Shown in pieces: positions 2,300 to 49,608 of a stretch of DNA of 51,017 bases. The stretch is from a plasmid. A program made the translations under genes and the position numbers. The stretch lies in sequence record NZ_CP032820.1; one strand, written 5' to 3'. Every line of letters starts with the position of its first letter. Positions within the stretch are counted from its first letter, which is position 1. The notes below the pieces were generated by a model. That model ran no database searches and was not told the origin of the DNA. It saw only the letters and a program-made list of their open reading frames with translations.

Positions 2300-3329
2300 G
2301 TTTATATTATTTATATTTGTTTGACGAGAATATCTTTATTTGCCGACAAAGGTACATAACTTTACGGAAAAATATGTTTCTAAAATATATAAATAGACAG
2401 CTGTGGGGAAAAATTAGATAATTAAAAAGGCTAAATGACTGAAAATAATCACTTAGCCTTTTAATCCGTACCCAGACCCGTACTTCGTAATTGCTGCGCC
2501 CATCATTCAAGACTGTCAAATCGGGTCTTTCCTGTCAAGCCAATGATGCCTATGCGTATGCCAAACACATGGATTACGGATTTCTCGTTCCGTGAACAAA
2601 CACTTTATCCGCAACTCTGCTATGTGGTGTATTGGCTTAACTCCATTTCTATGGGCAACACTTTTGTTGCAGATTTCAAGCAGCTTTTATCGAAATACCC
2701 ATCAGTAAGAACCCGTTTATTAGGCTTTCCTCATAATTGGGAACAAGAGCCTTTGTGGAGATAAAATAATTGCCCTGTTTCTTAAAAAGCACTGGGGCAA
2801 ACCAGCTCCGTCTTTAATTGTTTCCAATAAATGGATTGTTTCAAGCCCCTATAGAAAGAGAACAAAAATTCCTGTGTGAAAATTAATCTACGACAAGGAG
2901 CAAGCAAGGAGCAATATCAAACAAAAATCAATACCTTTGCAGTACATATGAGATAGACCAAAACAAAAGTGGAATATCGGAAACGAATAGCAAGGAAAAG
3001 AGAAGAAACGACCCAAGTTGATGTCCTTTTTGAGTTAATAATCAATAAAAGCGTTAAATCTTCACCTTTTAGAATGTGCAATTAAAAATAACAACCATAT
3101 TTCTGACTTATTATCTATAAAATATTGAGTAATAATCGGTTGTAAATACTTAGATTAAATACAAATTAACATTGATAGTAGCCTACAAAAAAAACGAGTA
3201 GGAGTTGACGAGTTGCTAGAAGTAATTAAAATGCAAAATGAAATTAATGAGCTAAGAAAAAATGGGAAATTAACTCCAGAAGACACTGTACGAATAAAAG
3301 ATTTATACCATAAATTAAATAAATAGCGT

Positions 3330-8311: not shown

Positions 8312-8321
8312 ATTAATAGTC

Positions 8322-9040
8322 TGGAAAGAAATTGATACCGTACTTTTCGGAGTTGCGGCATTGATGGGTAAACATGGCATGATGAAATGATACCGAATTA
8401 TCATTCCTGGCACACCCTGCAGAACGACCTTTTGATACCAAATACAAAAGCAGCCGGAAGCCGGACGCAAAAAATTGATACCATAAAACATTAGGGAAAA
8501 AGAACAGGAACAAAATACAATATTATATATATAAATAATATACGAATATATAATATATAAACAAATAATATATAATATATGATTAATATACTCCACTTCC
8601 AGAAAAAGCAACACGAAGAATCTTCTTTTCCCTAAAGTTCTTTGTGTCGTTTCTCTCTATATCTGAATACAGAAAAACGGCTGCATCATAAAAGAAAAGA
8701 CACCGACACCATTCAGGAACTACCGCCCATCGGCAAAAGGATTGCATCTAATTGATACCTTTTCTGCCTGCACTGGAGAGAAACCGGGAAGGTATTTGAT
8801 ACCGTACTTTTCCGGGTTCTGCCCGGCATGGACGATAAGAGAACATTATTATGATACCAAAAACCTTAGGGAAAAATAAAACCTCGGCAGTCTATAAACC
8901 TAAAACCATTTTTAACAAAAATAATTGTCCTATTATTTGCGACATTTATAGAAAATCACTATCTTTGAGTATTGAAAATAAAGAGATAAACAAACCTTTA
9001 AAGCTGGTTTGGCTGCCAGTATAAAGAACAGCAAACAAAA
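8322..9040. repeat. Composite intergenic repeat, copy 1: type B (8322-8510), AT-rich linker, type A (8626-8874), type C promoter module (8878-9040)
   Basis: Near-identical to the reverse-orientation copies at 25660-26160 and 30893-31630. Contains 7 TTGATACC/TGATACC boxes. Type A is bounded by TTTTCCCTAAAGTT/AACCTTAGGGAAAA. Confidence 0.9.
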
Positions 9041-9042
9041 TT

Positions 9043-9312
9043 ATGAATATCTTAAGATTTCTTTTAAGTAGCCTTTTATGGGCTATTGGTGGGGTTCTTG
9101 TATTAGCAATCTATGCGTATAGTGAACTAGTCTATTTGATTTTTATTTGCATTGCAATACTAGGATTAACCATCTACTACAGAAAATCCATAATAAAAAT
9201 GTACGCAGAAATCTTTAATGAGCTAGGAATCAATAAGTATGTTATACAAATTAAAAATCTAAAGAAATACAAAGAACCTATTTACAAACTAATCAATACA
9301 ATAGGTCTATGA
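9043..9312 (+). CDS. Small two-TM membrane protein
   Basis: 89-aa hydrophobic ORF whose ATG is the conserved 3' end of repeat type C (CAGCAAACAAAATTATG). Confidence 0.5.
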   Translation: MNILRFLLSSLLWAIGGVLVLAIYAYSELVYLIFICIAILGLTIYYRKSIIKMYAEIFNELGINKYVIQIKNLKKYKEPIYKLINTIGL

Positions 9313-18973: not shown

Positions 18974-19085
18974 AATTGATACCTTTTCTGCCTGCACTGG
19001 AGAGAAACCGGGAAGGTATTTGATACCGTACTTTTCCGGGTTCTGCCCGGCATGGACGATAAGAGAACATTATTATGATACCAAA
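18962..19085. repeat. Partial type A repeat (TTGATACC boxes), forward orientation
   Basis: About 115 bp identical to the core of type A: TTGATACCTTTTCTGCCTGCACTGGAGAGAAACCGGGAAGGTATTTGATACCGTACTTTTCCGGGTTCTGCCCGG. Confidence 0.85.
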
Positions 19086-19147
19086 AAATAAAAACCAATA
19101 CCACTCTCACTGCATAAAAGAGTGGTATTTTCATTTGAATTAATAAA

Positions 19148-21761: not shown

Positions 21762-21940
21762 AAGAATTTGTTGATACCGTACTTTTCGGAGTTCCGGCAC
21801 TGATGGGCAAACATGGCATGATGAAATGATACCGAATTATCATTCCTGGCACACCCTGCAGAACGACCTTTTGATACCAAATACAAAAAGCAGCCGGAAG
21901 CCGGACGCAAAAAATTGATACCATAAAACAAAAAAAGAAA
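21762..21940. repeat. Type B repeat, solitary copy
   Basis: Near-identical to 8322-8510. Four TTGATACC/TGATACC boxes. Sits between convergent genes. Confidence 0.85.
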
Positions 21941-22001: not shown

Positions 22002-22442
22002 CTAAAGAAAACGGTTCTTTTTTTGCTTAATCAAAGAACTTATGTCGCTACGGTGTTTAGTTAACCAATCTTCCAAAATAAACGAAACTAAAGATGAAAT
22101 AGGTATTTTGGCTTTAGCTTTGAGCAACCCAAACACCTCTTTTACATCTGTATCAACATATAGAACTTCCTTGCAATTATAATTTTTTCCTTTAATGTAC
22201 TCTAATAAGTCCGTCAAATCCATTTCACTAGAGCCATTAAAATTAAAAACTTCCGAAGAAGTTGTTTCCATTTCTACATGAAGTGGTTCTTTCTCCTCTT
22301 CAACTTCATATTTAGCTTCTTGAATAGGAGCTTCATTTATACTACTCCCATGCAATTCTTCACCTCTTATCATTTTAGCTATTTCCAGAACACTAGAAAT
22401 ACCTTCATTTTGCTTTTTCCTTAATTTATCAGCCATGTGCAA
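22002..22442 (-). CDS. DUF3408-like protein (TraB position, downstream of ParA)
   Basis: 146 aa, acidic N-terminus, conserved C-terminal block. Gene order relaxase-parA-this gene. Confidence 0.4.
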   Translation of the reverse strand: MHMADKLRKKQNEGISSVLEIAKMIRGEELHGSSINEAPIQEAKYEVEEEKEPLHVEMETTSSEVFNFNGSSEMDLTDLLEYIKGKNYNCKEVLYVDTDVKEVFGLLKAKAKIPISSLVSFILEDWLTKHRSDISSLIKQKKNRFL

Positions 22443-22494: not shown

Positions 22495-23118
22495 TTATTT
22501 TATTGCTCCTTCTTGAATGATATAATCATAAGCATTCTTCACCTTATCAATACACTCATTACTAATTGCTAATGTATTTATACGTTCCATAGCAACAGAA
22601 GCTGGTATTTCATCTGTAACAAAACCAACTTGCTTAAGAATATCAACTACCTGTTCTTTTGTTTCATATCTTACCGCAGTTCTCATATTGTTAGGTAAAA
22701 AGAATATTTTGGCTTTTACATTTAAATACTGTAACACTTGGATAAAAAAACCTGTACTATCCATTGTAAATTTATCGTATTTAAATGGGCATATTATTAT
22801 ATCCGCAGCTTTAAGAATAGTTCCCAGAGCATCATCATCAATCTTACCAGGCAAATCTATTAATAGATTTCCTTGCTCAACCTTAGTAAAATCACTAATA
22901 ATTTTAGCAACATTAGATATATCGGTTTGTATAACCTCATATTTAGGTTCATTATCATAGGTCGCAATATCTTCTTTTCTTCTATCCGATAATGAACGCT
23001 GAAAATCTAAATCCAATACTAGAACTTCTTTTCCTTTTTCTACTAGATAGTTGGCAAATTGTATGCAATTAGTCGTTTTACCACAACCGCCTTTCTGATT
23101 CCCAAATAATATTATCAT
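22495..23118 (-). CDS. ParA/MinD-family ATPase (TraA-like)
   Basis: Deviant Walker A KGGCGKTT at residues 9-16. Confidence 0.8.
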   Translation of the reverse strand: MIILFGNQKGGCGKTTNCIQFANYLVEKGKEVLVLDLDFQRSLSDRRKEDIATYDNEPKYEVIQTDISNVAKIISDFTKVEQGNLLIDLPGKIDDDALGTILKAADIIICPFKYDKFTMDSTGFFIQVLQYLNVKAKIFFLPNNMRTAVRYETKEQVVDILKQVGFVTDEIPASVAMERINTLAISNECIDKVKNAYDYIIQEGAIK

Positions 23119-23134: not shown

Positions 23135-24754
23135 TTAATTTTGTTGCTGTCCTCTTTTCTTTTTCCTATTAGGAGATTTATCTTGCTGTACATTTATATG
23201 CTGGCTAAGAATATCACAAATAGCATCAATCAGATTAAATCCCCTTGCCAGTTCTGAATCTTGTTCAACATTTATTCTTTCCATCTTATCAAGAGTAACT
23301 AGAGTAATCCTATCTTTACTATAGCCATCTTTTATAATATTGATTCCTAAATCATCAGTACTTACGATTACTTTATTCTTTTTATCTATTAGATAAACTA
23401 AATTATCATCTTCAACAAAAAGAATTCCTTTTTCTCTTAATGTAGAATGTAAATCTGAACTATGAGCCAAATAACTATTTATCATATCAGTATAGACAGT
23501 ATTTTTTTTATCCATATGCTCTTGAATCAAAATATCATCTTTTTTCACATGATAAATTCTACTTAACAACTCGGCTTCTTTAAGTGTAGCAACATTAAAT
23601 TTATTTGCTTCATACACTCTGCTATTATATCTAAGTTCTTTCAACAGTTTTTTATCAAGAACCAATAAAGCCTTATCATCACCATTTATAAATATTGTGC
23701 CATTCATTGAAAACCTATAACCGTAATCTAACATTAATTTCTTGAAACTATCCATTGTATATTTTGTTCCATCTTTCAAAAGAAGATTAATTATACTATT
23801 ACAGTGTTCAACTTTTGCTTGTTTATTAGGCTCTACTAAAAGTTCCTTCAAATCCATAACTTCCCCACCTTTCAGAACTCTCTTATTTCTATAATCAATT
23901 AATGTATATCCATAAGGTTTAGTATGTCCTTTTCCTGTATGAAAGACTAAATTTATACCAAACTTATCTTTCATCAAAGTTTGAAGTTCTGTATAGGAAA
24001 GTCCTTGCTTATATTTAAATAAAAGAGCTGTTATCTGTTTTCTTCTTTCTTCATCAGGTGTATATTGTTTAGCTTTATCTTTTATCTGCTCTAATTGAAT
24101 TGAAGCGTGCTTTTCACCACCCTTATACAAAATTAATAATCCATCCTTTTCTCTTAATTTCCATCCTGATTGTTCAAGTAACAACTTATATTGCTGCACT
24201 GTAGAAAAAGAAAACTCCATGTATTTTGAAATATCATCTTTAGCCTTCAAAGCTAAATCAACATTCATTATTTGATTTATGACTTTCTGTGAGCGCACAG
24301 CTTCCATATTATCTTTTACCTTCTGTCCGTTCTTCTGTACTCGTGTAGAAACAATATGTACATGATTATTTTCTGTATCAGAATGAAAATATATCATATA
24401 AGGATTATTTCCATAACCCATTTTATTTATATATTGCAAAGCTACATTTTTCAAATCCTCTGCCGAATATTCACGCCCCTTACATGAAATCACTGCATGA
24501 AATTGTTTTGCCTTGACCGCTGGATTAGTCCTACAGACAGATTCCATATAAGCTATATAATCCGACTTCTTCAAATTATCTGGATTCATAGCAAAATTTT
24601 CTGCAACAAGAAGTTCACTCTTGCCTTCCTCATTCTTTCGCTCATTATAATCAATACCAGCGAAAGAAGTTGCCGCTTTTAAAACTACTACTACCATATT
24701 TATAACTTCACACCGCAAATATACAAACAAATATTCAATAAAAGAATATTTCAA
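23135..24754 (-). CDS. Conjugative relaxase (MobA/VirD2-type nuclease domain; Bacteroides MobB-like); likely start at MVVVVL (about 24695)
   Basis: Relaxase histidine motif NNHVHIVSTRV and an N-terminal Tyr-containing region. Confidence 0.7.
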   Translation of the reverse strand: MKYSFIEYLFVYLRCEVINMVVVVLKAATSFAGIDYNERKNEEGKSELLVAENFAMNPDNLKKSDYIAYMESVCRTNPAVKAKQFHAVISCKGREYSAEDLKNVALQYINKMGYGNNPYMIYFHSDTENNHVHIVSTRVQKNGQKVKDNMEAVRSQKVINQIMNVDLALKAKDDISKYMEFSFSTVQQYKLLLEQSGWKLREKDGLLILYKGGEKHASIQLEQIKDKAKQYTPDEERRKQITALLFKYKQGLSYTELQTLMKDKFGINLVFHTGKGHTKPYGYTLIDYRNKRVLKGGEVMDLKELLVEPNKQAKVEHCNSIINLLLKDGTKYTMDSFKKLMLDYGYRFSMNGTIFINGDDKALLVLDKKLLKELRYNSRVYEANKFNVATLKEAELLSRIYHVKKDDILIQEHMDKKNTVYTDMINSYLAHSSDLHSTLREKGILFVEDDNLVYLIDKKNKVIVSTDDLGINIIKDGYSKDRITLVTLDKMERINVEQDSELARGFNLIDAICDILSQHINVQQDKSPNRKKKRGQQQN

Positions 24755-24820
24755 TATAATTTATTCATATAATAAATATTCAAATATTATATATTCATAT
24801 ATTATTTATATATATAATAT

Positions 24821-25069
24821 TTTTCCCTAAAGTTTTTGGTATCATAATAATGTTCTCTTATCGTCCATGCCGGGCAGAACCCGGAAAAGTACGGTATCAA
24901 ATACCTTCCCGGTTTCTCTCCAGTGCAGGCAGAAAAGGTATCAATTAGATGCAATCCTTTTGCTGATGGGCGATAGTTCCTGAATGGTGTCGGTGTCTTT
25001 TCTTTTATGATGCAGCCGTTTTCCTGTATTCAGGTATAGAGAGAAACGACACAAGGAACTTTAGGGAAA
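24821..25069. repeat. Type A repeat, solitary MITE-like copy with perfect 14-bp TIRs
   Basis: TTTTCCCTAAAGTT at 24821-24834 and AACTTTAGGGAAAA at 25056-25069. The interior is identical to other type A copies and carries three GGTATCA(A) boxes. Confidence 0.85.
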
Positions 25070-25130
25070 AGAAATAGTAACGCTGTCTTTATCACTAAAA
25101 TTATATATATAAATATTATATATACATATA

Positions 25131-25487
25131 TTATTTGATTGACATCAACTTACGCCAAGTAACATTCAATTTATCTTGCATAATTACATAGTCTGCCATT
25201 TTCTTTTCTACCTCATTAAGAACCTCTTGATTAACTTCTTCCTTATGAATATTTACATACCTAGCCAACTGATTTATATTATTTCCTATACGTTTCATTT
25301 CCAAACAAATTTCATCCATCGAACGAATAAATTCTTTAGGGTCAATAAGACCAACTCCTTTCCTAAAGACTCTCTGTCTAAAATAATCTGACATACATTT
25401 GCTAGATTTAGAAGCTTTAGTTAGTTCTTCATATTCTAAATTCGTTAAGCGAACTTTCACTATTCTATCTCTTTTATTTGCTTTCAT
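25131..25487 (-). CDS. MobC-family relaxosome accessory protein (Bacteroides MobA-like)
   Basis: IGNNINQLARYVN motif typical of pfam MobC. RHH-like N-terminus (VRLTNLEYEEL). Confidence 0.7.
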   Translation of the reverse strand: MKANKRDRIVKVRLTNLEYEELTKASKSSKCMSDYFRQRVFRKGVGLIDPKEFIRSMDEICLEMKRIGNNINQLARYVNIHKEEVNQEVLNEVEKKMADYVIMQDKLNVTWRKLMSIK

Positions 25488-25494: not shown

Positions 25495-25660
25495 TACTAA
25501 ATAATATATGCCCCCAAGTTGCGAGGGGGCTAAACTCCTGATTTATCAGGCAAGATTTGGTTTTTGTGTCCACAAAAACACATCTTGCTATTAATTTCTA
25601 CAAACGCAAATATATAAATTACTAAACACCCTCCCAAACAAAAGGGAAAAAAATACAATT
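25495..25660. promoter_or_regulatory. Candidate oriT/promoter region upstream of the mobA-mobB operon
   Basis: Two hairpins: GCCCCC-aagttgcga-GGGGGC, and GCAAGATTTGGTTTTTGTG...CACAAAAACACATCTTGC (imperfect IR). Confidence 0.4.
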
Positions 25661-26160
25661 AGATAAGTTTTTTTGGTATCATAATAATGTTCTCTTATCG
25701 TCCATGCCGGGCAGAACCCGGAAAAGTACGGTATCAAATACCTTCCCGGTTTCTCTCCAGTGCAGGCAGAAAAGGTATCAATTAGATGCAATCCTTTTGC
25801 TGATGGGCGATAGTTCCTGAATGGTGTCGGTATCGTTTCTTTTATGATGCAGCCGTTTTTCTGTATTCAGATATAGAGAGAAACGACACAAAGAACTTTA
25901 GGGAAAAGAAGATTCTTCGTGTTGCTTTTTCTGGAAGTGGAGTATATTAATCATATATTATATGTTTATAGGTTCATATATTATATATTATATATTCATA
26001 TATTATTTATATATAGTGTTTTCTCTTTGTTCTTTTTCCCTATAGTTTTATGGTATCAATTTTTTGTGTCCGGCTTCCGGCAGCTTTTTGTATTTGGTAT
26101 CAAAAAGGCGTTCTTCAGAACATATCGAGCATGATAATTCGGTATCAATTTCTTTCCCTA
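25660..26160. repeat. Composite repeat copy 2, reverse orientation: type A (25672-25907), linker, type B (26030-26160)
   Basis: Near-identical to the other copies. Nine GGTATCA(A) boxes. Confidence 0.9.
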
Positions 26161-26165
26161 CAGTA

Positions 26166-26590
26166 TATCAAAAAAGCATAGGGACAAAAACCCAACTTTT
26201 TAAAATATGTTTTTTTTAGATAGGGACAAAAACCCAACTTTCGATTGATTAGTTGTATCATATAGTGTCTTTTTTTGTTAATAGGTGTTCTTTTCCCTAA
26301 AGTTTGTGTTAAGATTATGAGAAAAGTTCCTTTTTTATGGGTTTATGTAATAAGAAAAGTTCCTTTTTTGTGTTTGGTATGATTATCAGGTTTTTTTTTA
26401 TCAGCTAGTGATGGTAGTACCCTTAAAAATGAAAGGGTAACTATCTGAAAAACAACAGATAATGGTAAAAAATCAGGGACAAAAACCCAACTTCTTAGGG
26501 ACAAAAACCCAACTTCTTAGGGACAAAAACCCAACTTCTTAGGGACAAAAACCCAACTTTTAGCCCCCTCCTAGGGACAAAAACCCAACT
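26166..26590. repeat. Iteron region (putative oriV): about 7 copies of GGGACAAAAACCCAACTT, including 4 tandem 22-bp units at 26474-26561
   Basis: Tandem AGGGACAAAAACCCAACTTCTT x4 and dispersed copies at about 26179, 26231 and 26572. Also GAAAAGTTCCTTTTTT x2 and the hairpin TACCCTTaaaaatgaaAGGGTA. Confidence 0.75.
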
Positions 26591-26591
26591 T

Positions 26592-27749
26592 TTATTCATC
26601 TTCTTTTTCTTCTCCAATCATTCCGGGGAGTATTTCTACTTCTTTTAATAATACGGATAAACAATATTCTGCTTTATTTGAAATTTTATTCCAGTTATCT
26701 CTAACATATTCGCCTAGATAAAGCATCTTAGTTACTACTGCTTTATAGTTGCTTAATGTAATCTGTGGAATAAACTGCTGCAAATGCTCGTCCTTCATTG
26801 CAAAGTGCAAAGAACAAAAATTCGTTATCATCTTCTTTTGTCCTTTTAATAGTTCTTCTTCCTTCTTTGATAATGCAGACTTAATAACTTTGAAATTAAG
26901 TTTATAAGGCTGTGTATCGCCTGAATTACGATAAACTTCTGCCATTTCAAACCAGCAATCAGCCTGTTCAAACAAATCATCGTAAACAGGGCGTATTACA
27001 CGTTTATACAAATCTTTAAATTCGGGGTATTTATCTTCTAATTTTAAGAATTTCCGAAATCTATCCACATAGATAGAAAAACCACCTTTTTCTTTCCATG
27101 AGCTAATCAGCATATACATTCTTATTGTATATCTACTTTGCGCTCTTAAAGCTATCTCTTTTATATAGCGTGTAAAACCTCTATCAACATTAATGAAAAC
27201 TTTAGCAACCTCTCTATCCATTTCTAAAGAAAAACCTCTTGAATAAGGAGTTTTAGGTATATTTGCCTTAGTGAATAAACCAGTAATAGACCAACTATCC
27301 TCACCTGTTATTGGGTCTTTAACATCAAGCTCTACAGGAATACTGATTAATTTACGAACCATGCTTTTTACTTCCTTGTATTGGTCTGGATTAACGCCCA
27401 AATCCCGATATGCGATATCTACTCTTATACGGTCTGAATATTCTTGAAATAAAGATAATTGCTCGCATGGAATAGATGTACCATATTTATCTAGATGCTG
27501 AATACTTAATTCTATGACATCCTGTAATTTCTCTATAACAGCAATTAAGATTCTAATCTGTACTGTCTTAAAATCACCAGCCATTAATGTAACTACATTA
27601 GGTTGTTTCAGCCATGTGGGATTTTCTGGGAGTTTCACAGGAAGATTTGTACGAGGATGCCCTTTCCTAATTCTAACAATCTCACCGTCTATTTCTTCTT
27701 TTTCTTCTTTCACCGCACGTTTTCGGGCTTTTATTTCTCTATTTACCAT
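26592..27749 (-). CDS. Plasmid replication initiator protein (Rep), iteron-associated
   Basis: 385-aa basic protein directly abutting the iteron array. Resembles Bacteroidales plasmid RepA-type initiators. Confidence 0.6.
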   Translation of the reverse strand: MVNREIKARKRAVKEEKEEIDGEIVRIRKGHPRTNLPVKLPENPTWLKQPNVVTLMAGDFKTVQIRILIAVIEKLQDVIELSIQHLDKYGTSIPCEQLSLFQEYSDRIRVDIAYRDLGVNPDQYKEVKSMVRKLISIPVELDVKDPITGEDSWSITGLFTKANIPKTPYSRGFSLEMDREVAKVFINVDRGFTRYIKEIALRAQSRYTIRMYMLISSWKEKGGFSIYVDRFRKFLKLEDKYPEFKDLYKRVIRPVYDDLFEQADCWFEMAEVYRNSGDTQPYKLNFKVIKSALSKKEEELLKGQKKMITNFCSLHFAMKDEHLQQFIPQITLSNYKAVVTKMLYLGEYVRDNWNKISNKAEYCLSVLLKEVEILPGMIGEEKEDE

Positions 27750-30544: not shown

Positions 30545-30579
30545 AAATTAATCCTTTCACATTTCTAATAATTGACTAT

Positions 30580-30842
30580 CAATCTGTAGTTTTCTTCAAT
30601 GCTTCAAAAGAAGACAAGTAATCATCAACAGCTTTATTTAACGCTGCATATTTATCTTTCCACGTCCTTATTTGCCGTTGTGTTTCAATATACCTATCAT
30701 TCAAAGTTGCATAATTCTGAATAGCAAATCTAATAGCTTTAGCATCTGTTTTTTCACCAGATAATTTTTTTAGATTTTCTAACTCTGCGCAGGCTGCATC
30801 GTCTAAGCGTAATGTAAACTCTTTTTCATAAAAAAATGATTA
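30580..30842 (-). pseudogene. RHH (CopG/MobC-N-like) protein gene, apparently frameshifted in an A5 run just after its ATG
   Basis: An 80-codon open frame (FTLRLDDAACAELENLKKLSGEKTDAKAIRFAIQNY...) lacks an ATG. ATGAAAAAGAG one frame over reads MKKSLHYA-stop. One extra A would give MKKEFTLRLDD.... Confidence 0.4.
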
Positions 30843-30892: not shown

Positions 30893-31630
30893 AAGAAGCA
30901 ATGTTTCATGATTTTGTTTGCTGTTCTTTATACTGGCAGCCAAACCAGCTTTAAAGGTTTGTTTATCTCTTTATTTTCAATACTCAAAGATAGTGATTTT
31001 CTATAAATGTCGCAAATAATAGGACAATTATTTTTGTTAAAAATGGTTTTAGGTTTATAGACTGCCGAGGTTTTATTTTTCCCTAAGGTTTTTGGTATCA
31101 TAATAATGTTCTCTTATCGTCCATGCCGGGCAGAACCCGGAAAAGTACGGTATCAAATACCTTCCCGGTTTCTCTCCAGTGCAGGCAGAAAAGGTATCAA
31201 TTAGATGCAATCCTTTTGCCGATGGGCGGTAGTTCCTGAATGGTGTCGGTGTCTTTTCTTTTATGATGCAGCCGTTTTCCTGTATTCAAGTATAGAGAGA
31301 AACGACACAAGGAACTTTAGGGAAAAGAAGATTTTTCGTGTTGCTCTTTCTGGAAGTGGAGTATATTAATCATATATTATATGTTTATAGGTTCATATAT
31401 TATATATTCATATATTATTTATATATAGTGTTTTCTCTTTGTTCTTTTTCCCTATAGTTTTATGGTATCAATTTTTTGTGTCCGGCTTCCGGCAGCTTTT
31501 TGTATTTGGTATCAAAAGGTCGTTCTACAGGGTGTGCCAGGAATGATAATTCGGTATCATTTCATCATGCCATGTTTACCCATCAATGCCGCAACTCCGA
31601 AAAGTACGGTATGAATTTCTTTCCCTATAG
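30893..31630. repeat. Composite repeat copy 3, reverse orientation: type C (30893-31075), type A (31076-31326), linker, type B (31445-31630)
   Basis: Near-identical to copies 1 and 2. The type C ATG here is followed by only a 27-codon ORF, so it is a decayed copy. Confidence 0.9.
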
Positions 31631-31879
31631 TTCTTATTGGGTTAGACAACAAGACGCATTAAAATGTATTCTCAAAGTGAGAATGTATTTTAATTTGCGT
31701 CATGTTTCCGCTTCTGCAATGCTTACTAAAGTGGAGTTACCTAAAAGGTAGTGGAACTTTACTAAGGATTGCAGAAGGGATAAAGAAACATACCTTAGAA
31801 GGGTGGGTGGGTTTACCGATAGCAAAACTATTGGAGCGTAACAAAGTGAAGCGATTAAGCCTTTTTGGTTCTTTTTTGG

Positions 31880-31917
31880 CGTTTGAAAAAAGAACTCCCC
31901 CCAATGAGGGGGGAAGG
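31880..31917 (-). terminator. Intrinsic terminator downstream of the ArdC-like gene
   Basis: On the minus strand, CCCCCCTCATTGGGGGG followed by AGTTCTTTTTT. Confidence 0.6.
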
Positions 31918-31922: not shown

Positions 31923-32933
31923 TTAAGCAACCTTTGTATTTTTCTCTTCTTCAACTTCTCCCACATCTAGCCTTATATTTAGATGCTGGGCTATGAATTT
32001 ACTACCTTTAATAGCATCTGCCAATACAGTAAATAAAAATTTAGGTTCTTCTTTTATTGCTTTGCACCATGATTTTAAATAAGCCGCATTTTCTTCTCTG
32101 ACGGTTACAGAAATACCCAAATATACACCAGACAAAGCCGATATTAATTCTGCTACAAGTTCTTCACGCCCATAATTGAATTTATCATTTTCATAAAATC
32201 CTTTTCGATTTAGTCTATTTTTAACACCTGTACTATGTCCCATTTCATGTAATTCTGTACCATAAAAACTTTCTCCGTCCTTAAATTGGCTCTTTAAAGG
32301 TAAAGTAATGCTATCATTTGATATTGAATAAAACGCACTATCACTAGAAACCGTTTGAATAGGACATACCCAATTTTGATTCTTATTCATTTCATCAAGT
32401 ATTGGATTTACATACATTTCTTTCTCTTCTTGTGGCTGTTCCTCTCCTGAAAATTTAGCCTTTAATATATCCCATCTATTGGGATATTTTTCCGCAAAGT
32501 TTGTTTGGTCTAAATTAAAAACTTGGAAATATTTTGTATAAGCTGCTAAACGGTATTCTTTTTGTTCTTCTTCTGATAATTTGTTATATTCATCATATGA
32601 AATTTTTTCATTTGTCTGACGATGATAAGCACAAAATAATGTGTAATAAACAGGAAAAGCAACAGCACCTTTTAGAACATTAATACCTTCGTTTCGTGCT
32701 TGATTGAATGTCAAAAAAACAGGAGTTTGATAATTATATTTTTCACACAAAAAATAAAGTAAAAAAGCGTTTCCACCACTATAAGTACGACCTGTTAAAT
32801 TTTGTGGTAAAAAGTTCTGTTTAGAGTTGACTTTAGAGAACCAAGGTTTTTGCCAATTCATAGACAAGCTTTCAATTTTTTCAACCATAAGGTTTACAAA
32901 CTTCTCTGCATTTTTATCAAAAGTAGATTTCAT
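31923..32933 (-). CDS. ArdC-like antirestriction protein (ssDNA-binding N-domain plus zincin-like HExxH metalloprotease domain)
   Basis: 336 aa with HEMGH at the C-terminal domain. The N-terminal region resembles the DUF1738/ArdC ssDNA-binding domain. Confidence 0.65.
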   Translation of the reverse strand: MKSTFDKNAEKFVNLMVEKIESLSMNWQKPWFSKVNSKQNFLPQNLTGRTYSGGNAFLLYFLCEKYNYQTPVFLTFNQARNEGINVLKGAVAFPVYYTLFCAYHRQTNEKISYDEYNKLSEEEQKEYRLAAYTKYFQVFNLDQTNFAEKYPNRWDILKAKFSGEEQPQEEKEMYVNPILDEMNKNQNWVCPIQTVSSDSAFYSISNDSITLPLKSQFKDGESFYGTELHEMGHSTGVKNRLNRKGFYENDKFNYGREELVAELISALSGVYLGISVTVREENAAYLKSWCKAIKEEPKFLFTVLADAIKGSKFIAQHLNIRLDVGEVEEEKNTKVA

Positions 32934-33115
32934 AATTTTGTTTGCTGTTCTTTATACTGGCAGCCAAACCAGCTTTAAAAGTTTATTTATCTCTTTATTT
33001 TCAATACTCAAAGATAGTAATTTTCTATAAATGTCGCAAATAATAAGACAATTATTTTTGTTAAAAATAGTTTATAATTGGCTGATTTTTAAGGTATTAT
33101 CTTTTCCCTAAAGTT
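32928..33115. repeat. Type C promoter/5'-UTR module, solitary copy driving the ArdC-like gene
   Basis: About 150 bp near-identical to 8878-9040 (RC) and 30893-31075. Ends in TTTTCCCTAAAGTT at 33102-33115. Confidence 0.85.
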
Positions 33116-33356
33116 TTATATATTTTGGGTGAGAGATAAGGTTTTATAAACGGAATATTCCCTTTGGGAACATGAAGTCTATAAAACCGAATATCCAATG
33201 CCTTGCTTTTGTAGGTGCTTCATAGAAGCGGTGAAAAAAGCAAAGCATTGGATATACCTTAGAAGGGTGGGTGGGAAAATGCGTTAGGGATTACAGCGGA
33301 AAGCCCACAGCGTAGCGAGGACTTGCAGCGAAAAGCCCGACCTGAAAGGTAACGCC

Positions 33357-33965
33357 CTATTTATTTCTTCTATTCATCAATCTTACTTTTTCATAACGTA
33401 AATACCTATACAAAGTAGCCTTACTTCCAATGTGTAAAATTCTACATATTTCATCTATAGAATAATCCCGATTTTCATATAAACGCTTTGCTGCTATAGC
33501 TTTTCTCTTTGCATCTTCCGATAACCCTATAGGTCGTCCCGTAAGTTTCCCTCGTTCTTTTGCAGCTTGTAATCCAGCCCTAGTTCGTTCTACTATTATT
33601 TCACGTTCATATTCAGCCAATGAAGCAAAAATTCCAAATTGACATCTTCCTAAAGCACTATTAGTATCAATACCATCAACTATGCTTTTGAATGCAATTT
33701 TTCTTTTCTGCAAACAATCAACTATATAAACTAAATCTTTCAAAGAACGTCCTAATCTATCTAGCTTCCAGATAACAAAAGTATCACCTTCTCGCAAATA
33801 TGCAAGGGCTTTATCTAATTCGGGTCTATCCTTTACTCCTGATACTTTTTCCTCAAATATAAGTTTGCATCCGGCTTCTTTTAAAGCATCTAGCTGCAAA
33901 TCTAAATTCTGTTCCCTCGTTGAAACACGAGCGTAGCCTATTATCTCCATTTTATTTAAATCCAA
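33357..33965 (-). CDS. Serine recombinase (resolvase/invertase family)
   Basis: GYARVSTREQ catalytic-serine motif at the N-terminus and a C-terminal HTH. About 200 aa. Confidence 0.85.
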   Translation of the reverse strand: MDLNKMEIIGYARVSTREQNLDLQLDALKEAGCKLIFEEKVSGVKDRPELDKALAYLREGDTFVIWKLDRLGRSLKDLVYIVDCLQKRKIAFKSIVDGIDTNSALGRCQFGIFASLAEYEREIIVERTRAGLQAAKERGKLTGRPIGLSEDAKRKAIAAKRLYENRDYSIDEICRILHIGSKATLYRYLRYEKVRLMNRRNK

Positions 33966-41190: not shown

Positions 41191-41540
41191 AAGCGTAGAA
41201 CAACCAAAAACAATCAGAAATATCCAAGCATAAACATTTAATTATCAACACATTCTAAAAATTAACACATTTCGACTGCTTTTTGATGCTTCCCAAATTT
41301 CCACATATTTTTGAGACGTATTTCTGACGTGGAGAATTTGCGGGGCTTGTTTTTTGTCACACCGTGCAGACAGTTGACAAGAGTTTACAACCGTTTACGA
41401 CAAGCGACAATACCTGCCCCGACATTCAGCGACGGTCACATCGTGTAGAAAGGCGACAACCGTTGACTGCCGTTTACATCCGTTCACCACTTCAGAGGAA
41501 TACAGGATTGGAGAAATGAACCAGTAAACGATAAAGCAGT

Positions 41541-42476
41541 ATGAAAGCAACCCGAAAATGCAGTTTTTGCGGCAAGTCCTTTGTAACCCGCAGCGGAATG
41601 CAAAGGTATTGCAGCGAGGCTTGTCAGGCAGAAGCCCGGCGAGCCAGAATGACACAGAAGAATAACCTCTTCAAGGCCGTCCGGCCAATCATGGAGATAC
41701 AGCATCAGGAGTATCTCACCTTTTCCAAGGCAGCCATACTCATGGGCTGTTCCCGACAGTACATCTATAAACTTGTAGCCATGGGCAAGCTGAAAGCCTC
41801 ACGCATCAGCAACCGCATGGCATTCATCCGCAGAGCCGACATCGAGCGGATGCTGGAGGGCAATCCCTACCACCGCATCCTGCCCGGCAGCACTTCCACA
41901 CCGAAAAAATCCGCTTCATCTTCCTTTCCGGGCAAAAAAGAAAAAAGGGAAAAGGGAGGCGATGAGATTTTGGACTTCTATTCCGGTGAAGAGGTGATGT
42001 CCCTTTATAAGGTCAAACAGTCATGGCTCTATACCACCGCCAAACGCAACCGCATTCCCATCTGCCGCATCGCTGGAAAGAACTATTACAGCAAGAAGCA
42101 TGTTGACGAGTTCTTCTGTGCGGCTGTTGATATGGAAAGTATCACCGACTGGCTCCTGACCGGAGAGGCGGAAGAGCTGTTCGGCATGAAGCCTGCCGCA
42201 CTCCGGGCATATGCCTACCGGCACAGGATACCGACCATAAGAGAATACGGCCGCACCTATTACTCCAAGTCCCATCTGGACGAACTCCGCAGAACCGATC
42301 TTGTGAACGACGAGCGTTATTACACCGTGGAACAGGTCCGGCAGATTTACGGGCTTTCCTCAGCCAACATCTGCCATATCGTCAAGGTTAAGCACATCGA
42401 AAAGATAAAGGTCGGCGTGAAGAACCTGCTTCTGCGCTCCGACGTGGAGCGTGTCATGGCTGAAAGGAACAAATAA
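41541..42476 (+). CDS. DNA-binding protein with N-terminal zinc ribbon and four tandem excisionase/MerR-like HTH repeats
   Basis: CSFCGKSF..YCSEAC zinc ribbon. Four repeats of the pattern YxxxxAAxxxGxSRQxIYKLV...G.L.A.RI..R..F.R.D.E. Confidence 0.5.
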   Translation: MKATRKCSFCGKSFVTRSGMQRYCSEACQAEARRARMTQKNNLFKAVRPIMEIQHQEYLTFSKAAILMGCSRQYIYKLVAMGKLKASRISNRMAFIRRADIERMLEGNPYHRILPGSTSTPKKSASSSFPGKKEKREKGGDEILDFYSGEEVMSLYKVKQSWLYTTAKRNRIPICRIAGKNYYSKKHVDEFFCAAVDMESITDWLLTGEAEELFGMKPAALRAYAYRHRIPTIREYGRTYYSKSHLDELRRTDLVNDERYYTVEQVRQIYGLSSANICHIVKVKHIEKIKVGVKNLLLRSDVERVMAERNK

Positions 42477-42616
42477 CCGCAAGCAACCGCCATTACCCGA
42501 AAATTATTTCAAAATGATTGTCGTGGAGATATTCACGGCTGTTTCACGTTGTTCCTTTGCCACCGTAAACACGGAGACACCTCCGGAAGTGTACAACCAG
42601 TTAAAACATCACCAAT

Positions 42617-43735
42617 ATGAGTAAATGCAAGACAGTAACCTTGCGCAAGCGCAAGATCAAGAACGGTACACAGTATTCGCTGTGTCTGGACTATTATCCC
42701 GGCTACCGTGACAACACCACCATGAAAGTGATAACACGTGAAGCTCTGGGTATTTACATTTTTGCCAAGCCTGCCAACCAGCAGGAGCGTGACTTCAACG
42801 CACGCATGATGAAGAAGGCGGAGATACTCCGCAACAGGCGTTACGAAGCCATCTTCAACGAGAACAACGGCTTCTTTGACAAGGCTAAGATGAAGGGGGA
42901 TTTCCTCGCCTACTTCAAGGAACTGGCAGACAGGAGAAATATCAAGTGGCAGCACGTCTACAAGCACTTCGAGCGGTTCGTGGGCGGCAAATGTACCTTT
43001 GAAGAGGTGGATGTGGACCTGTGCCGCAAGTTCATGGAGTACCTGCTGAACGCTCCCCAGACCATACACACCAACCAAAAGCTGCATATCAATTCTGCGG
43101 CAGGCTACTGGTCGGCTTTCCGTGCCGTCCTGCACACGGCCTACCGTGACAGGAAGATAAAGGAGAATCCCAACGGCTTTCTGGACCGTATCGAGAGTAT
43201 TCCCACCATGAGGGAGCATCTGAGCCAGGAGGAACTGATACGGCTTGCCGAAACGCCATGCGAGGAAGAGGTTCTGAAAAGGGCTTTCCTTTTCGCCTGC
43301 CTGACAGGATTGAGGAAGAGCGACATCAGGCAGCTTACCTGGCAGCAGATACAGCCGTACACCAACGGCAAGATGTTCGTTACCACCCGTATGCAGAAGA
43401 CGAAGCAGATTGTTCACAATCCCATCAGCGATGAAGCCTACGGACTGCTCGGGGAGCGGCATGAAGGGCTTATCTTCGAGGGCTTCAAGGATAAGATGCT
43501 GCAGGGGCCCCTGAAGCGTTGGCTGTCAGCGGCAGGCATAACCAAGAAGATAACCTTCCATTGCACCCGGCATTCATTCGGAAGCCTGCACGTGGAAATG
43601 GGCACGGACATGGCTGTCATACAAGCCTGTCTGGGACACAAGAACATTACCACCACACAGATCTATTCCAAGATGGCTGCACAGCAGATGTGTGACGTGG
43701 TGGACAAGATAACCCTGAAACGCAAGGAGGCATAG
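42617..43735 (+). CDS. Tyrosine site-specific integrase (IntN1-like)
   Basis: C-terminal catalytic residues in context: R...HCTRHSFGS...LGHKNITTTQIYSK (R-H-R-Y). Confidence 0.85.
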   Translation: MSKCKTVTLRKRKIKNGTQYSLCLDYYPGYRDNTTMKVITREALGIYIFAKPANQQERDFNARMMKKAEILRNRRYEAIFNENNGFFDKAKMKGDFLAYFKELADRRNIKWQHVYKHFERFVGGKCTFEEVDVDLCRKFMEYLLNAPQTIHTNQKLHINSAAGYWSAFRAVLHTAYRDRKIKENPNGFLDRIESIPTMREHLSQEELIRLAETPCEEEVLKRAFLFACLTGLRKSDIRQLTWQQIQPYTNGKMFVTTRMQKTKQIVHNPISDEAYGLLGERHEGLIFEGFKDKMLQGPLKRWLSAAGITKKITFHCTRHSFGSLHVEMGTDMAVIQACLGHKNITTTQIYSKMAAQQMCDVVDKITLKRKEA

Positions 43736-43976
43736 GCCTGTTTCAGGGTATTCAGGGGGAGCGGTTATTGCGTGCAGGCTTTAACCGCTCCCTCTGTTTC
43801 TAATGGCACCATTCCCTAAAAAGTCATTATAGTATGATATTCGGGTATGATTCCGGGCTTTTGGTGAAAAACATTGAAAAAGAAACCGCCAACCAAAGCT
43901 AAAGAGCAATAATTGGAAGAATACAATTAAATTTGCAAAGACCTGACAGTTACAAGTAATAACCGAAAAAAACGAT

Positions 43977-44807
43977 ATGGAACCAACGATAAAGGACAAA
44001 TACATCATTCTGGGATTCATCGGCGTTGCCATCTGCCTGATTTCCTTTTTTATCACACTGATTGTCTCCGCAAGTTTCAATCAGGACAATTTTGTAAGGC
44101 TGATAGTCTTTGTATGCAGCAACATTCTCGGCTGGCTGCTCTATCTCTCTTTCCAGACGGTCATTTTCGACTCATACGAGATCTGGAAACTCAAGTCCGG
44201 CAAGAAAAAGGCATCTGCCGGAATCATAAAGGCTCAGGAAGAACAGCCACAGGATACGCATGAACCTGCTGCTCCGACACCGATGCCGACAGGCGGGGAA
44301 GCAACCCCGGATATAAAACCGGTAGAGATTGCCATTGCCCCGGAACTTCACGAAAAGAACCGTGCCAGCTATGAGGACAGACAGAAGCAGGAAGAAGCGG
44401 AACGGATCCGCATGGTCATGGAGTACATCCACTTCGTCATGCCCCGTATTGCCGACAAGGAGACCGTCAACCATATCTGTGCCGAGGTCAACAAGTGGAT
44501 GTGCCTTCACAGCTACAAGCCCAAGCCGATAACAGGACGGCTGACCAGAGAGATTACCAACATTCCGCTCCGCCATTTCGTGTGGAACATCTCCGAGCGT
44601 TTCATGTACAAGAAATACTACAACGGGGACAACCGTGCCAATTTTATCAAGACCCTTTTTCCACGTGAATTTGCCGACACGGATATAGCGACCATAAAGA
44701 ACTTCAAGGTCGATCCGTCAAAGACGCTGATTCCCATTGACGAACCCGAAAACGGCAGTCTGGACTTCCATTATCCCGAAGATTATGTACGGGAAGTGAA
44801 CAGTTGA
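43977..44807 (+). CDS. Hypothetical membrane protein with Pro/Glu-rich linker
   Basis: 276 aa. Two N-terminal TM helices. Confidence 0.4.
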   Translation: MEPTIKDKYIILGFIGVAICLISFFITLIVSASFNQDNFVRLIVFVCSNILGWLLYLSFQTVIFDSYEIWKLKSGKKKASAGIIKAQEEQPQDTHEPAAPTPMPTGGEATPDIKPVEIAIAPELHEKNRASYEDRQKQEEAERIRMVMEYIHFVMPRIADKETVNHICAEVNKWMCLHSYKPKPITGRLTREITNIPLRHFVWNISERFMYKKYYNGDNRANFIKTLFPREFADTDIATIKNFKVDPSKTLIPIDEPENGSLDFHYPEDYVREVNS

Positions 44808-45017
44808 CCGTTTCCCGGGGATATAACAACAATAACGACAAGTATCAGGCAATACGTAACAGCCTGTATCTCATTGTTTCCCGAATAACTTTGCCCCTCA
44901 TTCACGGTTGGACATCGTTATTCGGGAATTATTTTGCAATGACCTTTCGTGAAGATATTCACGGCCATATCATTGCGGTCCTTTGCGCCAAGCCTTACAA
45001 AAGAGGCGAGTACGCAA

Positions 45018-45392
45018 ATGGAAAAAACAGTGATTACATTCAACGACCTTCCCGAGGTCGTAGCCCAGCTTCGGGACGAAGTGATGAGCTTGAGAAGCCT
45101 GCTTACCGAGCAGCGCAGTGTGAACAATGCAAAGGCGGTGGACACCCATGTCCCCATGTCCGTGGATGAAGCGGCGGAATATCTCGGTATTCCCAAGGGA
45201 ACGCTCTACATGAAACTGTCGGACGGAAGCATTCCGGCCACCAAGCCCGGCAAACGCTATTGCCTTTACCGTGACGAACTGGACAGATGGCTGGAATCCT
45301 CCCGCAAGAATCCCGTACCCCTGTCCGATGAGGAACTCAGCGAGTCCATGTCCTCCTCCCACCGCCGCAAGCCCGGTCAACGTAACTGGTAA
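45018..45392 (+). CDS. Excisionase-family HTH DNA-binding protein (ORF opens at 44949; probable start at MEKTV)
   Basis: HTH_17-like segment VDEAAEYLGIPKGTLYMKLSDGSIPATKPGKRYCLYRDELDRWL. Confidence 0.55.
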   Translation: MEKTVITFNDLPEVVAQLRDEVMSLRSLLTEQRSVNNAKAVDTHVPMSVDEAAEYLGIPKGTLYMKLSDGSIPATKPGKRYCLYRDELDRWLESSRKNPVPLSDEELSESMSSSHRRKPGQRNW

Positions 45393-45397
45393 GAGCC

Positions 45398-46552
45398 ATG
45401 GAAGAGGACAAGAACTATATTAGCATGATACATGGCGACCTGACGAGGGCAGCCCAGATGCAGAACGGTATGCCGGAAAATATCGGTGTAATGAGCATAA
45501 AGACCGCCAACCGGACCATACTCGAAGCATCACAGCTGCCCACGCCCCGTGCGTTGTGGGACAGCTTCTGGTACGAGGGGGAACTGTCCTGCCTCTTTGC
45601 AGATTCCAACGTGGGGAAATCCATCCTTGCCGTCCAGATAGCCGACCGTATAGCACGGACTGACAACGTGCTTTATCTGGACTTTGAACTCTCTGAAAAG
45701 CAGTTCCAGCTCCGCTATACCGACGAGTACGGAAAGCCTTACATTTTTCCCGAAAGGCTGTACCGGGTATCGCTTGACTGCGACGCCCTTCTCGATGCCG
45801 ACTTTGAAGGGACGATCATCGGCAGCATCGAACAGATGGCACAGCAGACCCGCTGCAGGATCTTCATCGTTGACAACCTTACTTACCTGTGCTGTGCCAT
45901 GGAGAAAGGCGATGCGGCGGGACGGCTGATGATACAGCTCAACAATCTCAAAAAGAGATACGGGCTTTCCATCCTAGTCCTGGCACACACCCCAAAGCGT
46001 TCACTGGACTGTCCCATCACGTCCAACGACCTTGCCGGAAGCAAGCGGCTCTACAATTTCTTTGACAGCGTGTTTGTCATCGGGAAAAGCGCACTGGACG
46101 GGGGACTACGCTATGTGAAGCAGCTCAAGGTCCGTTACGGGACATTCTCGTACGATGCCGACAATGTGATTGTCTATGAGATTGAGAAAACGGACGCCTT
46201 CCTGCAATTCGTGTTCAGGGGCTATTCAACCGAAAAGGAACACCTGAAGAAACCGGGTGACAACGAATCGGGACAAAGGGATTGCCTTATCCTGCAACTG
46301 TCCCAATCAGGGAAGTCAGTCCGGGAGATAGCCTCGCAGGTCAATTGCGGCAAGTCCACCGTCAGCCGGATAATCCAGCGCAGCAAGGAGGACAGGAACG
46401 CGGCCGTCCCGGGTGTCCCGCTGTCCCGTCCCAAGGAGAACGGGACAATGGGACAGGTGGGACAGCATGGGACAGATGGGACAAGCGGGACAGCAGGAGA
46501 AGCAAGGCAGGCGGATCTGTTTGCAGGACATGAAAAGGAGGACAAGCCATGA
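45398..46552 (+). CDS. AAA-family ATPase (RepA/DnaB-loader-like, AAA_25-type) with C-terminal HTH
   Basis: Walker A DSNVGKS, Walker B IFIVDN, C-terminal HTH (SVREIASQVNCGKSTVSRI). Confidence 0.6.
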   Translation: MEEDKNYISMIHGDLTRAAQMQNGMPENIGVMSIKTANRTILEASQLPTPRALWDSFWYEGELSCLFADSNVGKSILAVQIADRIARTDNVLYLDFELSEKQFQLRYTDEYGKPYIFPERLYRVSLDCDALLDADFEGTIIGSIEQMAQQTRCRIFIVDNLTYLCCAMEKGDAAGRLMIQLNNLKKRYGLSILVLAHTPKRSLDCPITSNDLAGSKRLYNFFDSVFVIGKSALDGGLRYVKQLKVRYGTFSYDADNVIVYEIEKTDAFLQFVFRGYSTEKEHLKKPGDNESGQRDCLILQLSQSGKSVREIASQVNCGKSTVSRIIQRSKEDRNAAVPGVPLSRPKENGTMGQVGQHGTDGTSGTAGEARQADLFAGHEKEDKP

Positions 46553-47853: not shown

Positions 47854-48135
47854 CGGAGGAGAGCGGAAACCGAAGGTTGTAGTGTACGGACAATGGCTTG
47901 CCATTGATATAGCCCACTATAACTACACGCTTCGCTTACGTAGTTGTGGGCTCTCCCGAGAGGATTAGGGTTTTACCCTAATAACCCACTCAGGGCGTTT
48001 CTCCCCTGAGAACCCAGAGCAAAGAGTGACCCTCTCTTTGCAATCTCCGCTTATGGGTTGCACCCCTAAGAACCCCATGCGTTTACGGACAGCGGAAAAG
48101 CTAACAATAAAGTACAAACCAAAAAACAAGTATCT

Positions 48136-49539: not shown

Positions 49540-49550
49540 TAGAAGCAATT

Positions 49551-49608
49551 TGATTAGTAATCTAAAAGCACTCCGATAACGATTAGAGTGCTTTTAGATT
49601 ACTAATCA
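49551..49608. terminator. 23-bp perfect palindrome with 12-nt loop immediately after the mob gene
   Basis: TGATTAGTAATCTAAAAGCACTC-cgataacgatta-GAGTGCTTTTAGATTACTAATCA. Confidence 0.6.

Follow-up and report, generated by a model that had tools for sequence, protein, structure and literature searches.

The IncP plasmids RK2 and RP4, through KorA and KorB, and the IncW plasmid R388 coordinate replication, partition and transfer by means of short operators in many of their intergenic regions. KorB is, moreover, the ParB partner of a ParA. In sopC of the F plasmid, the binding sites follow one another with a period of ~43–44 bp, which corresponds to four helical turns. On plasmid pSM19035, the ribbon-helix-helix (RHH) protein omega binds to 7-bp heptads (WATCACW) in front of several operons and is, in addition, the centromere-binding protein that partners a small ParA (PMC4627068, PMC9499535). 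Omega needs at least two to four contiguous heptads, and its sites consist of six to ten heptads in direct succession (PMC4627068, PMC9499535). Here we analysed a stretch of 51,017 nucleotides from a plasmid (sequence record NZ_CP032820.1), referred to below as the window, and describe non-coding cassettes which carry the heptamer GGTATCA, are located at inter-operon regions and precede nearly all operons in a family of Bacteroides conjugative plasmids. One of them, cassette A1, lies between a mobilization gene and the relaxase gene and had been interpreted in an initial annotation as a miniature inverted-repeat transposable element (MITE). As far as we could find, the cassettes are apparently undescribed: a search of the literature accessible to us revealed no described counterpart of these repeats, and they are akin to plasmid global-regulon or centromere-like repeat arrays. 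Tentatively, with a probability of about 0.42, we propose that the cassettes, which fall into two types (A and B), are double-stranded DNA operator arrays of a plasmid-encoded global regulator in pBF9343-like conjugative plasmids of the Bacteroidales.

The GGTATCA boxes within the unit are the stronger signal, which had been missed by the initial annotation. We found 36 exact copies in the window compared to 4.6 expected, and none of the shuffled sequences reached this number. Nine clusters at inter-operon regions hold three or four boxes each, and the same short sequence is thus present upstream of several operons of one plasmid, as is expected for an operator array. All 72 gaps within the clusters of four plasmids measure 43, 44, 45 or 55 bp, i.e. 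four or five turns of ~11 bp. The spacers that fill these gaps are unrelated to each other and fall into at least seven families for the 44-bp gap and at least six for the 55-bp gap, with a mean identity of 0.33–0.39. Purifying selection has acted on the sites and not on the spacers between them, which is likewise a property of operator arrays. The box itself is a sharp 7-mer without a second half-site. Among 23 distinct copies of the A cassette (81–100% identical), the three boxes, the 14-nt motif described below as well as the sequences AATCCTTTTGC and AGAGAAACG are invariant, and a 114-nt core is 100% identical in all five A copies of the window, which are found on both strands. With invariant boxes and motif and a preserved geometry, the pattern is the one left by selection on short DNA sequences and their arrangement and not by selection on a mobile element. 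Furthermore, the orientation of the boxes relative to transcription is constant and flips exactly where a large inversion in this plasmid lineage flips the genes. The switch of the box strand at ~21.95 kb is thus due to the inversion of the cassettes along with the block that extends from the tra genes to a helix-turn-helix (HTH) gene. We also compared the box with known binding sites. Only the WATCAA part of the Escherichia coli IHF consensus (WATCAANNNNTTR) fits, and we therefore rejected an assignment to IHF sites; the DnaA box does not fit at all. A scan for sigma-70-type promoters and terminators showed no enrichment, using a consensus that is not apt for Bacteroides.

Cassette A1 (24821–25070, on the plus strand when the strand reading GGTATCA is taken as reference) is non-coding and located upstream of the relaxase–parA–DUF3408 operon, with its flanking genes on the minus strand. 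Its two ends form a perfect 14-bp inverted repeat, which can be extended to 23 nt at 83% complementarity. The promoter-proximal motif TTTTCCCTAAAGTT, or left terminal inverted repeat (TIR), occupies positions 24821–24834 (plus strand), and the distal, inverted motif or right TIR occupies positions 25057–25070 (minus strand), where the plus strand reads AACTTTAGGGAAAA. The initial annotation had described the perfect repeats correctly but placed the right arm at 25056–25069, so that the unit comprises 250 bp instead of 249 bp. Its placement next to the relaxase gene was also accurate, and the neighbour named mobA there is a MobC/NikA-like gene (mobC; 25131–25487, minus strand). Box 1 (24838–24844), box 2 (24893–24899) and box 3 (24937–24943) are all on the plus strand; the second lies 55 bp from the first in the palindrome GGTATCAAATACC, and the third lies 44 bp from the second within an invariant run of 18 nt, AGAAAAGGTATCAATTAG. 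A degenerate box 4, GGTGTCT, follows 55 bp from box 3 (24992–24998, plus strand), and at its position GGTATCG is found in copy A2 and GGTATCA in the plasmid Q1F2-p2. The homology of A1 to the copies A3 and A4 stops within ~4 nt of each repeat; A1 is therefore a discrete unit bounded by inverted repeats, as originally proposed. AT-rich tandem repeats with a period of 15 bp (24729–24822) lie between the cassette and the relaxase promoter, and further 15-bp repeats are found on its mobC side (25096–25134). This AT-rich array is also present in the cassette-free relative pBACSA01. By pattern match, we assigned to the relaxase operon a putative Bacteroides −7 box, TATATTTG (TAnnTTTG; 24716–24723, minus strand), which lies ~100 bp downstream of A1 in the direction of transcription. 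Repeats of the same AT-rich, 15-bp-period type accompany other cassettes as well (8513–8575, 25951–26010 and 31372–31422, in addition to the two arrays at A1), and they may constitute a separate binding array, e.g. a centromere or an unwinding element.

Among the sister cassettes, A2 (25670–25907, plus strand) is located upstream of the mobC promoter and lacks the promoter-proximal motif. A3 (31077–31326, plus strand) and A4 (8626–8875, minus strand) each lie upstream of a so-called C-type promoter, the former in front of the leading-region operon and the latter in front of the DUF3791...HU operon. A5 (18974–19087, minus strand) consists of the 114-nt three-box core alone, has the motif at neither end and begins directly after a stop codon; it is followed by a terminator-like hairpin and then by the type IV coupling protein (T4CP) operon. 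The B-type cassettes include a four-box copy with a spacing of 44/45/55 bp (8321–8500, minus strand), a copy after the HTH gene at the convergent junction that was created by the large inversion (21771–21930, minus strand), a three-box copy that abuts the replication iterons (26034–26163, plus strand) and a copy with direct repeats of the motif at 31446 and 31619 (31446–31632, plus strand). The C-type module (30904–31049, minus strand) comprises a canonical Bacteroides promoter (TTTG ... TAtcTTTG), the 5′ untranslated region and the start codon. It recurs at 32928–33073, in front of ArdC, and at ~8900–9046 (plus strand), and its promoter layout is TTTG, ~20 nt, TAnnTTTG. Along the direction of transcription, the parts are arranged in the order upstream gene with terminator, B, AT-rich repeats, A, promoter (TTTG/TAnnTTTG) and gene. 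Read in this direction, the boxes appear as TGATACC, and the promoter-side end of a cassette reads TGATACC-N3-6-AACTTTAGGGAAAA. Directly behind the C-type promoter on the plus strand, we noticed an open reading frame (ORF) for a hydrophobic protein of 89 aa (9043–9312, plus strand) with a faint Hok/Gef-like Pfam match (E = 0.03), which may be a small membrane toxin.

The 14-nt motif TTTTCCCTAAAGTT is itself enriched. With up to two mismatches it has 19 matches in the window compared to 1.43 expected, and 0 of 100 shuffles reached 19. The matches at 16117 and 38626 arise by coincidence within coding sequence, as they fall into the signal peptides of two paralogous genes, and the one at 8487 was set aside. 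The two paralogs share a near-identical signal-peptide region (16072–16130/38605–38639 and 16551–16743/38381–38573). The sites listed in the initial annotation proved correct within 1–3 nt (8626/8862, 31077/31313, 25894, 26291, 33102, 26034, 31446 and 31619), and its view of the motif as a module junction is borne out by this recurrence. However, the B modules are bounded by direct and not by inverted copies. The motif also keeps a constant distance of ~85 bp to the C-type promoter, including at sites whose flanks are no longer recognisably homologous. Moreover, it is similar to the sequence at which two replication iterons meet (AACTT-CTT-AGGGACAAAA versus AACTT-T-AGGGAAAA; shared pattern AACTT..TAGGGA.AAAA), and inverted copies are found next to the iterons, e.g. 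at 26291–26304. Judged by its letters, this likeness could serve as a lead toward binding by Rep.

The window represents a Bacteroides conjugative plasmid of the pBF9343 family. Bases 1–1307 are identical to bases 49711–51017, and this terminal repeat indicates a circular molecule of ~49.7 kb. Around cassette A1, ~30 plasmids from Bacteroides and Phocaeicola are 99% identical to the window, including pBF9343 of B. fragilis NCTC 9343. These relatives were typed as conjugative, MOBP, MPF_T and rep_cluster_663, and all plasmids of this replicon group, 30 of 30, carry A1 collinearly between mobC and the relaxase gene. The cassette is already present in a divergent member of the family, Q1F2-p2. 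Two more distant plasmids, pBACSA01 (P. salanitronis) and pBFY46 (B. fragilis YCH46), are syntenic with the window and have backbone proteins that are 40–85% identical to its own. In pBACSA01, the mobC–relaxase gap comprises 132 bp of AT-rich repeats and a promoter box, TACATTTG, without a cassette, and in pBFY46 it contains an ISBf3 insertion and a lone motif without boxes. Since the cassette is missing from the gap in both plasmids, A1 represents an addition in the rep_cluster_663 lineage, and in this sense an insertion between mobC and the relaxase gene had been recognised correctly. The accompanying statement that these two genes are normally translationally close was overstated, as the gap of pBACSA01 carries its own promoter-like TAnnTTTG box. 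Both distant plasmids possess repeated modules of their own at the same five inter-operon positions, with the same GGTATCA, the same 44/55-bp spacing and the same motif and with an internal sequence that is unrelated to that of the window. A box array upstream of the mobC–relaxase–parA operon is found in every lineage.

A scan of metagenomes for the composite of box and motif yielded at least 119 loci. The flanks are nearly all plasmid backbone, and since almost all loci belong to the same plasmid family, they hardly widened the diversity of lineages. At ~290 module ends from plasmids and metagenomes, among the matches listed, the box end invariably points toward the promoter and the distal end toward a GAAGATT/GAAATAG flank; one apparent exception in orientation is a sequence variant in the normal orientation. 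Among ~140 assembled units from the same sources and likewise among the matches listed, there was neither an inverted A unit nor an empty site. The A1 unit was not found in other plasmids of PLSDB or in any record of the phage collection. A scan of genome contigs for triple boxes returned mostly chance matches, with at least four loci of the family among the matches listed. Two metagenome contigs join the unit to housekeeping genes (ruvB/ftsW and tuf/rplA). We considered these human-gut loci (L165 and L200) as chromosomal copies and rejected them as chimeric contigs, one of which ends in an Illumina adapter and neither of which has its junction at the repeat.

According to our proposal, the cassettes would be the upstream control regions of the backbone operons, each presenting three or four boxes on one face of the helix at distances of 44, 45 or 55 bp and usually bounded on the promoter side by AACTTTAGGGAAAA. 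A plasmid-encoded, sequence-specific protein would occupy the boxes and set the activity of the promoter 60–120 bp downstream, and all operons would be controlled together. The architecture of the cassettes, its conservation and their placement and orientation were observed here; that a protein binds them, which protein this would be and how it would affect regulation are inferred. The A1 copy would have originated in an ancestor of rep_cluster_663, when an A cassette was copied into the AT-rich array of the mobC–relaxase gap, probably by recombination and not by transposition. Its arrival would have placed the relaxase–parA–DUF3408 operon under shared control. The earlier suggestion that the segment may insulate or co-regulate its neighbours would survive in this modified form, in which the junction is part of a plausible co-regulatory element. 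In addition, the arrays may double as partition sites.

The leading candidate for the binder is an RHH-like protein of 83 aa, WP_004295365, whose function could be comparable to that of omega of pSM19035 or of KorA/KorB of the IncP plasmids. Its gene (30579–30827, minus strand) is the first one after A3 and the C-type module in the leading-region operon. The protein has a weak match to Pfam RHH_1 (E = 0.0026, below the cut-off), and its AlphaFold model shows an extended N-terminus, a short helix and a helix of 50 residues (pLDDT 82). Homologues with 34–36% identity are present in all three lineages, and the N-terminal strand FTLRL is invariant. In the window, the gene carries a 1-nt deletion directly after the ATG (an A5 in place of an A6 tract, ~30822) compared to three relatives. 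This could be a true frameshift or an error of sequencing, and variation by slippage is a further possibility. The resemblance to omega of the inc18 plasmids comprises a small RHH protein, 7-bp units with an ATCA core (WATCACW versus GGTATCA) and arrays ahead of several operons, with a small ParA and a zeta toxin likewise present on the plasmid. Phylum and promoter type are different. With KorA/KorB and R388, the cassettes share a short sequence that is repeated across the intergenic regions of a conjugative plasmid. However, the KorB sites are single 13-bp palindromes, in contrast to the phased arrays of an asymmetric 7-mer here, and no ParB/KorB homologue was detected in the plasmid.

Several points weigh against operator arrays. 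The choice of binder is a guess, as the three lineages have also conserved HU, the XRE-type HTH protein WP_004295346, MobC, the DUF3408 protein WP_007557648 and Rep, and for the 83-aa protein neither an informative sequence match in the PDB nor a Foldseek match of its model to a PDB structure was obtained. The heptads of omega are contiguous, whereas binding is predicted here for single boxes 44–55 bp apart. Box 1 and the −7 element are separated by a variable interval (~62, 102 and 118 bp), which does not keep the helical register. In its position between stop codon and hairpin, A5 is too close to the following ATG for a promoter to fit in between, and one B copy is located at a convergent junction. 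Furthermore, the A unit has a strong folding potential (z = −4 to −6.6) and shows a few compensatory changes. On the side of operator arrays, no unusual folding energy was seen for the B cassettes (z between 0 and −2), and since they fold no better than expected, structure is not the property which the cassettes share.

In a more far-reaching version of the operator proposal, which we regard as doubtful, single 7-bp boxes in an 11-bp register over ~150 bp would be read by the small RHH protein or another one to form a wrapped nucleoprotein complex at every operon boundary. Such complexes could couple transcription, ParA-dependent partition and perhaps establishment in the recipient. The latter is conceivable because half of the cassettes are on the transferred strand, in the leading region, next to oriT/oriV. 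If true, spaced and phased arrays would constitute an architecture distinct from the contiguous heptads of omega, the palindromes of KorB and the tandem repeats of sopC.

Among the alternatives to operator arrays, a dispersed centromere fares best, although we consider it unlikely. In this case, the box arrays would be partition sites like sopC of F or the KorB operators of RK2, and their binder, either the DUF3408 or the RHH protein, would work with the small ParA, with or without a role in transcription. The gene pair that could serve this function, parA (22495–23118, minus strand; a type-Ib-sized ParA of 207 aa) and the DUF3408-type ORF downstream of it (22002–22442, minus strand; 146 aa), is conserved in all lineages, and the box array upstream of the operon that contains parA is common to all of them. 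Moreover, the box periodicity of ~44 bp recalls the 43-bp units of sopC. In sopC, however, 12 near-identical 43-bp units form one tandem array beside sopAB, whereas only a 7-mer is shared here among nine dispersed clusters, and nine clusters around the plasmid would be unusual for a plasmid centromere. The arrays also follow the starts of operons and not the par locus, Pfam reveals no DNA-binding domain in the DUF3408 protein, and no connection between ParA and the boxes emerged from the analysis. A double function would have a precedent in pSM19035, where operator sites are also parS sites (PMC4627068).

A structured single-stranded element appears quite unlikely to us. The A unit could act as an RNA (a leader, or in processing and stability between operons), or as a hairpin of the transferred strand, i.e. 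a single-strand initiation site (ssi) or an Frpo-like promoter for early expression in the recipient. The direction of transfer is indicated by a probable origin of transfer, an oriT-like hairpin followed by a CTCCTG nick-region motif (25508–25560, plus strand). The hairpin TGCCCCC-AAGTTGCG-AGGGGGC is followed by TAAACTCCTGATTTATCAGG; its arms covary across the three lineages represented by the window, pBACSA01 and pBFY46, each time next to (A/C)TCCTG, and pBACSA01 reads ATCCTG as in the RP4-type nick site. Because the hairpin and the nick motif are on the plus strand, this is the transferred strand, and A2, B2, A3 and B3 are consequently located in the leading region (25.6–34 kb: rep, small genes, ArdC). 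These four cassettes lie upstream of rep, small genes and ArdC, all templated by the transferred strand, and in the unidirectional relatives pBFY46 and Q1F2-p2 all cassettes are on one strand. For these four copies, a function as single-strand promoter or in priming would be conceivable. A1 folds far more stably than shuffled sequences, with z = −5.6 to −6.6 for the gene-sense strand, −3.5 to −4.1 for the opposite strand and −3.5 to −4.6 when DNA parameters are included. The 14-nt repeats would close the fold of the A unit, and compensatory changes affect three or four of its pairs. A5 speaks for this reading as an exception, since it lies between a stop codon and a terminator-like hairpin, and in pBACSA01 and pBFY46 the last box is part of the stem of this hairpin. 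As in the leading regions of F and ColIb-P9 with their Frpo/ssi elements, a repeated, folded non-coding unit of ~250–330 nt is found upstream of leading-region genes such as ArdC on the transferred strand. However, covariation contributes little, and to the same extent for either strand (−1.56 and −1.47; 25 copies), neither the B cassettes, unstructured as they are, nor the three-box core show significant structure, and the boxes have no consistent structural context. Copies are also found outside the leading region, and those of the inverted block occupy the strand unsuited to such a function, yet their 114-nt core is 100% identical, which a single-strand role cannot explain. Most cassettes are placed after a terminator and before a promoter, and the stem of the A unit contains no TAnnTTTG or other promoter elements. 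Finally, Rfam gave no match in the window at the gathering threshold and none in the cassettes at E ≤ 1.

It is very unlikely that the motif is a recombination site, at which a serine recombinase would cross over to invert A as a phase-variable switch or to shuffle modules and cargo. The recombinase gene (33357–33950) encodes a protein of 197 aa with Resolvase and HTH_7 domains, as in invertases of the Hin and Mpi types. The two lineages which possess the recombinase, those of the window and pBACSA01, have units with inverted repeats at both ends, in contrast to pBFY46, from which the recombinase is absent, and some cargo junctions lie at or within 10 nt of the repeat (loci L132 and L171). The invertible promoters of Bacteroides (Mpi/fin) are likewise ~200–300 bp long with short inverted repeats, located before operons and accompanied by a serine recombinase of ~197 aa. 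Here, however, the unit occurs in one orientation in all of the ~140 copies mentioned above, and the canonical promoter lies outside of it. Moreover, pBFY46 keeps motif and boxes without the recombinase gene, the motif there having one orientation, which weakens the earlier idea of a module-shuffling TIR. The direct arrangement of the motif around B and its fixed distance from the C-type promoter despite decayed flanks also speak against this function, and nine mutually recombining sites would be destabilising.

The interpretation with which the analysis began, a non-autonomous MITE moved in trans by a transposase that recognises the 14-bp TIRs, is largely refuted and retains only a minimal probability. 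The unit does resemble the Correia elements of Neisseria, ERIC and RUP in being a small, intergenic, non-coding element (~100–250 bp) with terminal inverted repeats that may affect the genes next to it; in Correia elements, an IHF site and promoter elements are present. Perfect repeats, a MITE-like size of ~250 bp, several copies, homology that ends at the repeats and the absence of A1 from the homologous gap of two distant relatives would all agree with such an origin. However, the flanks of A1 (...TATATATAATAT / unit / GAAATAGTAACG...) contain no direct repeat that could be a target-site duplication, their sole similarity being the pre-existing 15-bp AT-rich array; only relatives that are 30–60% divergent in protein sequence lack A1, without an empty site or insertion polymorphism in any close relative; every copy occupies a position that is homologous and equivalent in function, always in the same orientation; one repeat is missing from A2 and both from A5; the unit is not dispersed genome-wide, being confined to this plasmid group in PLSDB and the phage collection with only chimeric links to chromosomes among the metagenome matches listed; no cognate transposase was recognised in the window, as the ends of its only transposase, of the IS256/Mutator type, and of its tyrosine integrase are unrelated; and the internal boxes have been conserved between lineages regardless of the repeats.

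Further features of the plasmid frame the cassettes. The relaxase gene (23135–24697, minus strand) heads the operon with parA and the DUF3408-type ORF, and rep (26592–27749, minus strand) is adjacent in the gene order to the replication iterons (AGGGACAAAAACCCAACTT, 22-bp period; 26158–26591, plus strand). The iteron sequence is identical in three plasmid lineages in which the Rep proteins are just 53–68% identical. The pBF9343 lineage differs from the unidirectional Q1F2-p2 and pBFY46 by a single large inversion, the tra-to-HTH block, whose breakpoints lie at ~21950, beside a B cassette, and at ~34000, beside the serine recombinase gene. This gene is separated from the ArdC promoter by non-coding sequence with strong structure (33116–33356; z = −5.7/−7.4), which contains a sub-threshold match to the Flavo-1 RNA at 33278–33346 (27.7 bits versus a gathering score of 42). 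Its sequence ACCTTAGAAGGGTGGGTGGG recurs at ~31793, downstream of ArdC (region ~31640–31900). A cargo insertion (~41200–49710 and 1–3150) is located inside the tra operon, between the traK-adjacent ORF and traM, and may have disrupted conjugative transfer. It encodes a tyrosine integrase, an HTH_17/MerR-type protein, AAA_25 and DUF6371 and resembles a mobilisable transposon. The IS256/Mutator-family transposase (49711–50928, also 1–1218) and a class A beta-lactamase (1325–2299, minus strand) are part of this cargo.

Plasmids like pBF9343 are common in human gut Bacteroides and Phocaeicola and carry cargo for resistance or antagonism, such as the class A beta-lactamase on the inserted mobilisable element of the window or the MACPF toxins of its relatives. 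Our comparison also cautions that an intergenic repeat with inverted ends is not automatically a MITE. The cassettes provide an annotation signature for operon boundaries in these plasmids. A conserved, easily recognised cis-element together with a short list of candidate binders also offers a direct experimental entry point to the coordination of replication, partition and transfer in Bacteroidales plasmids.

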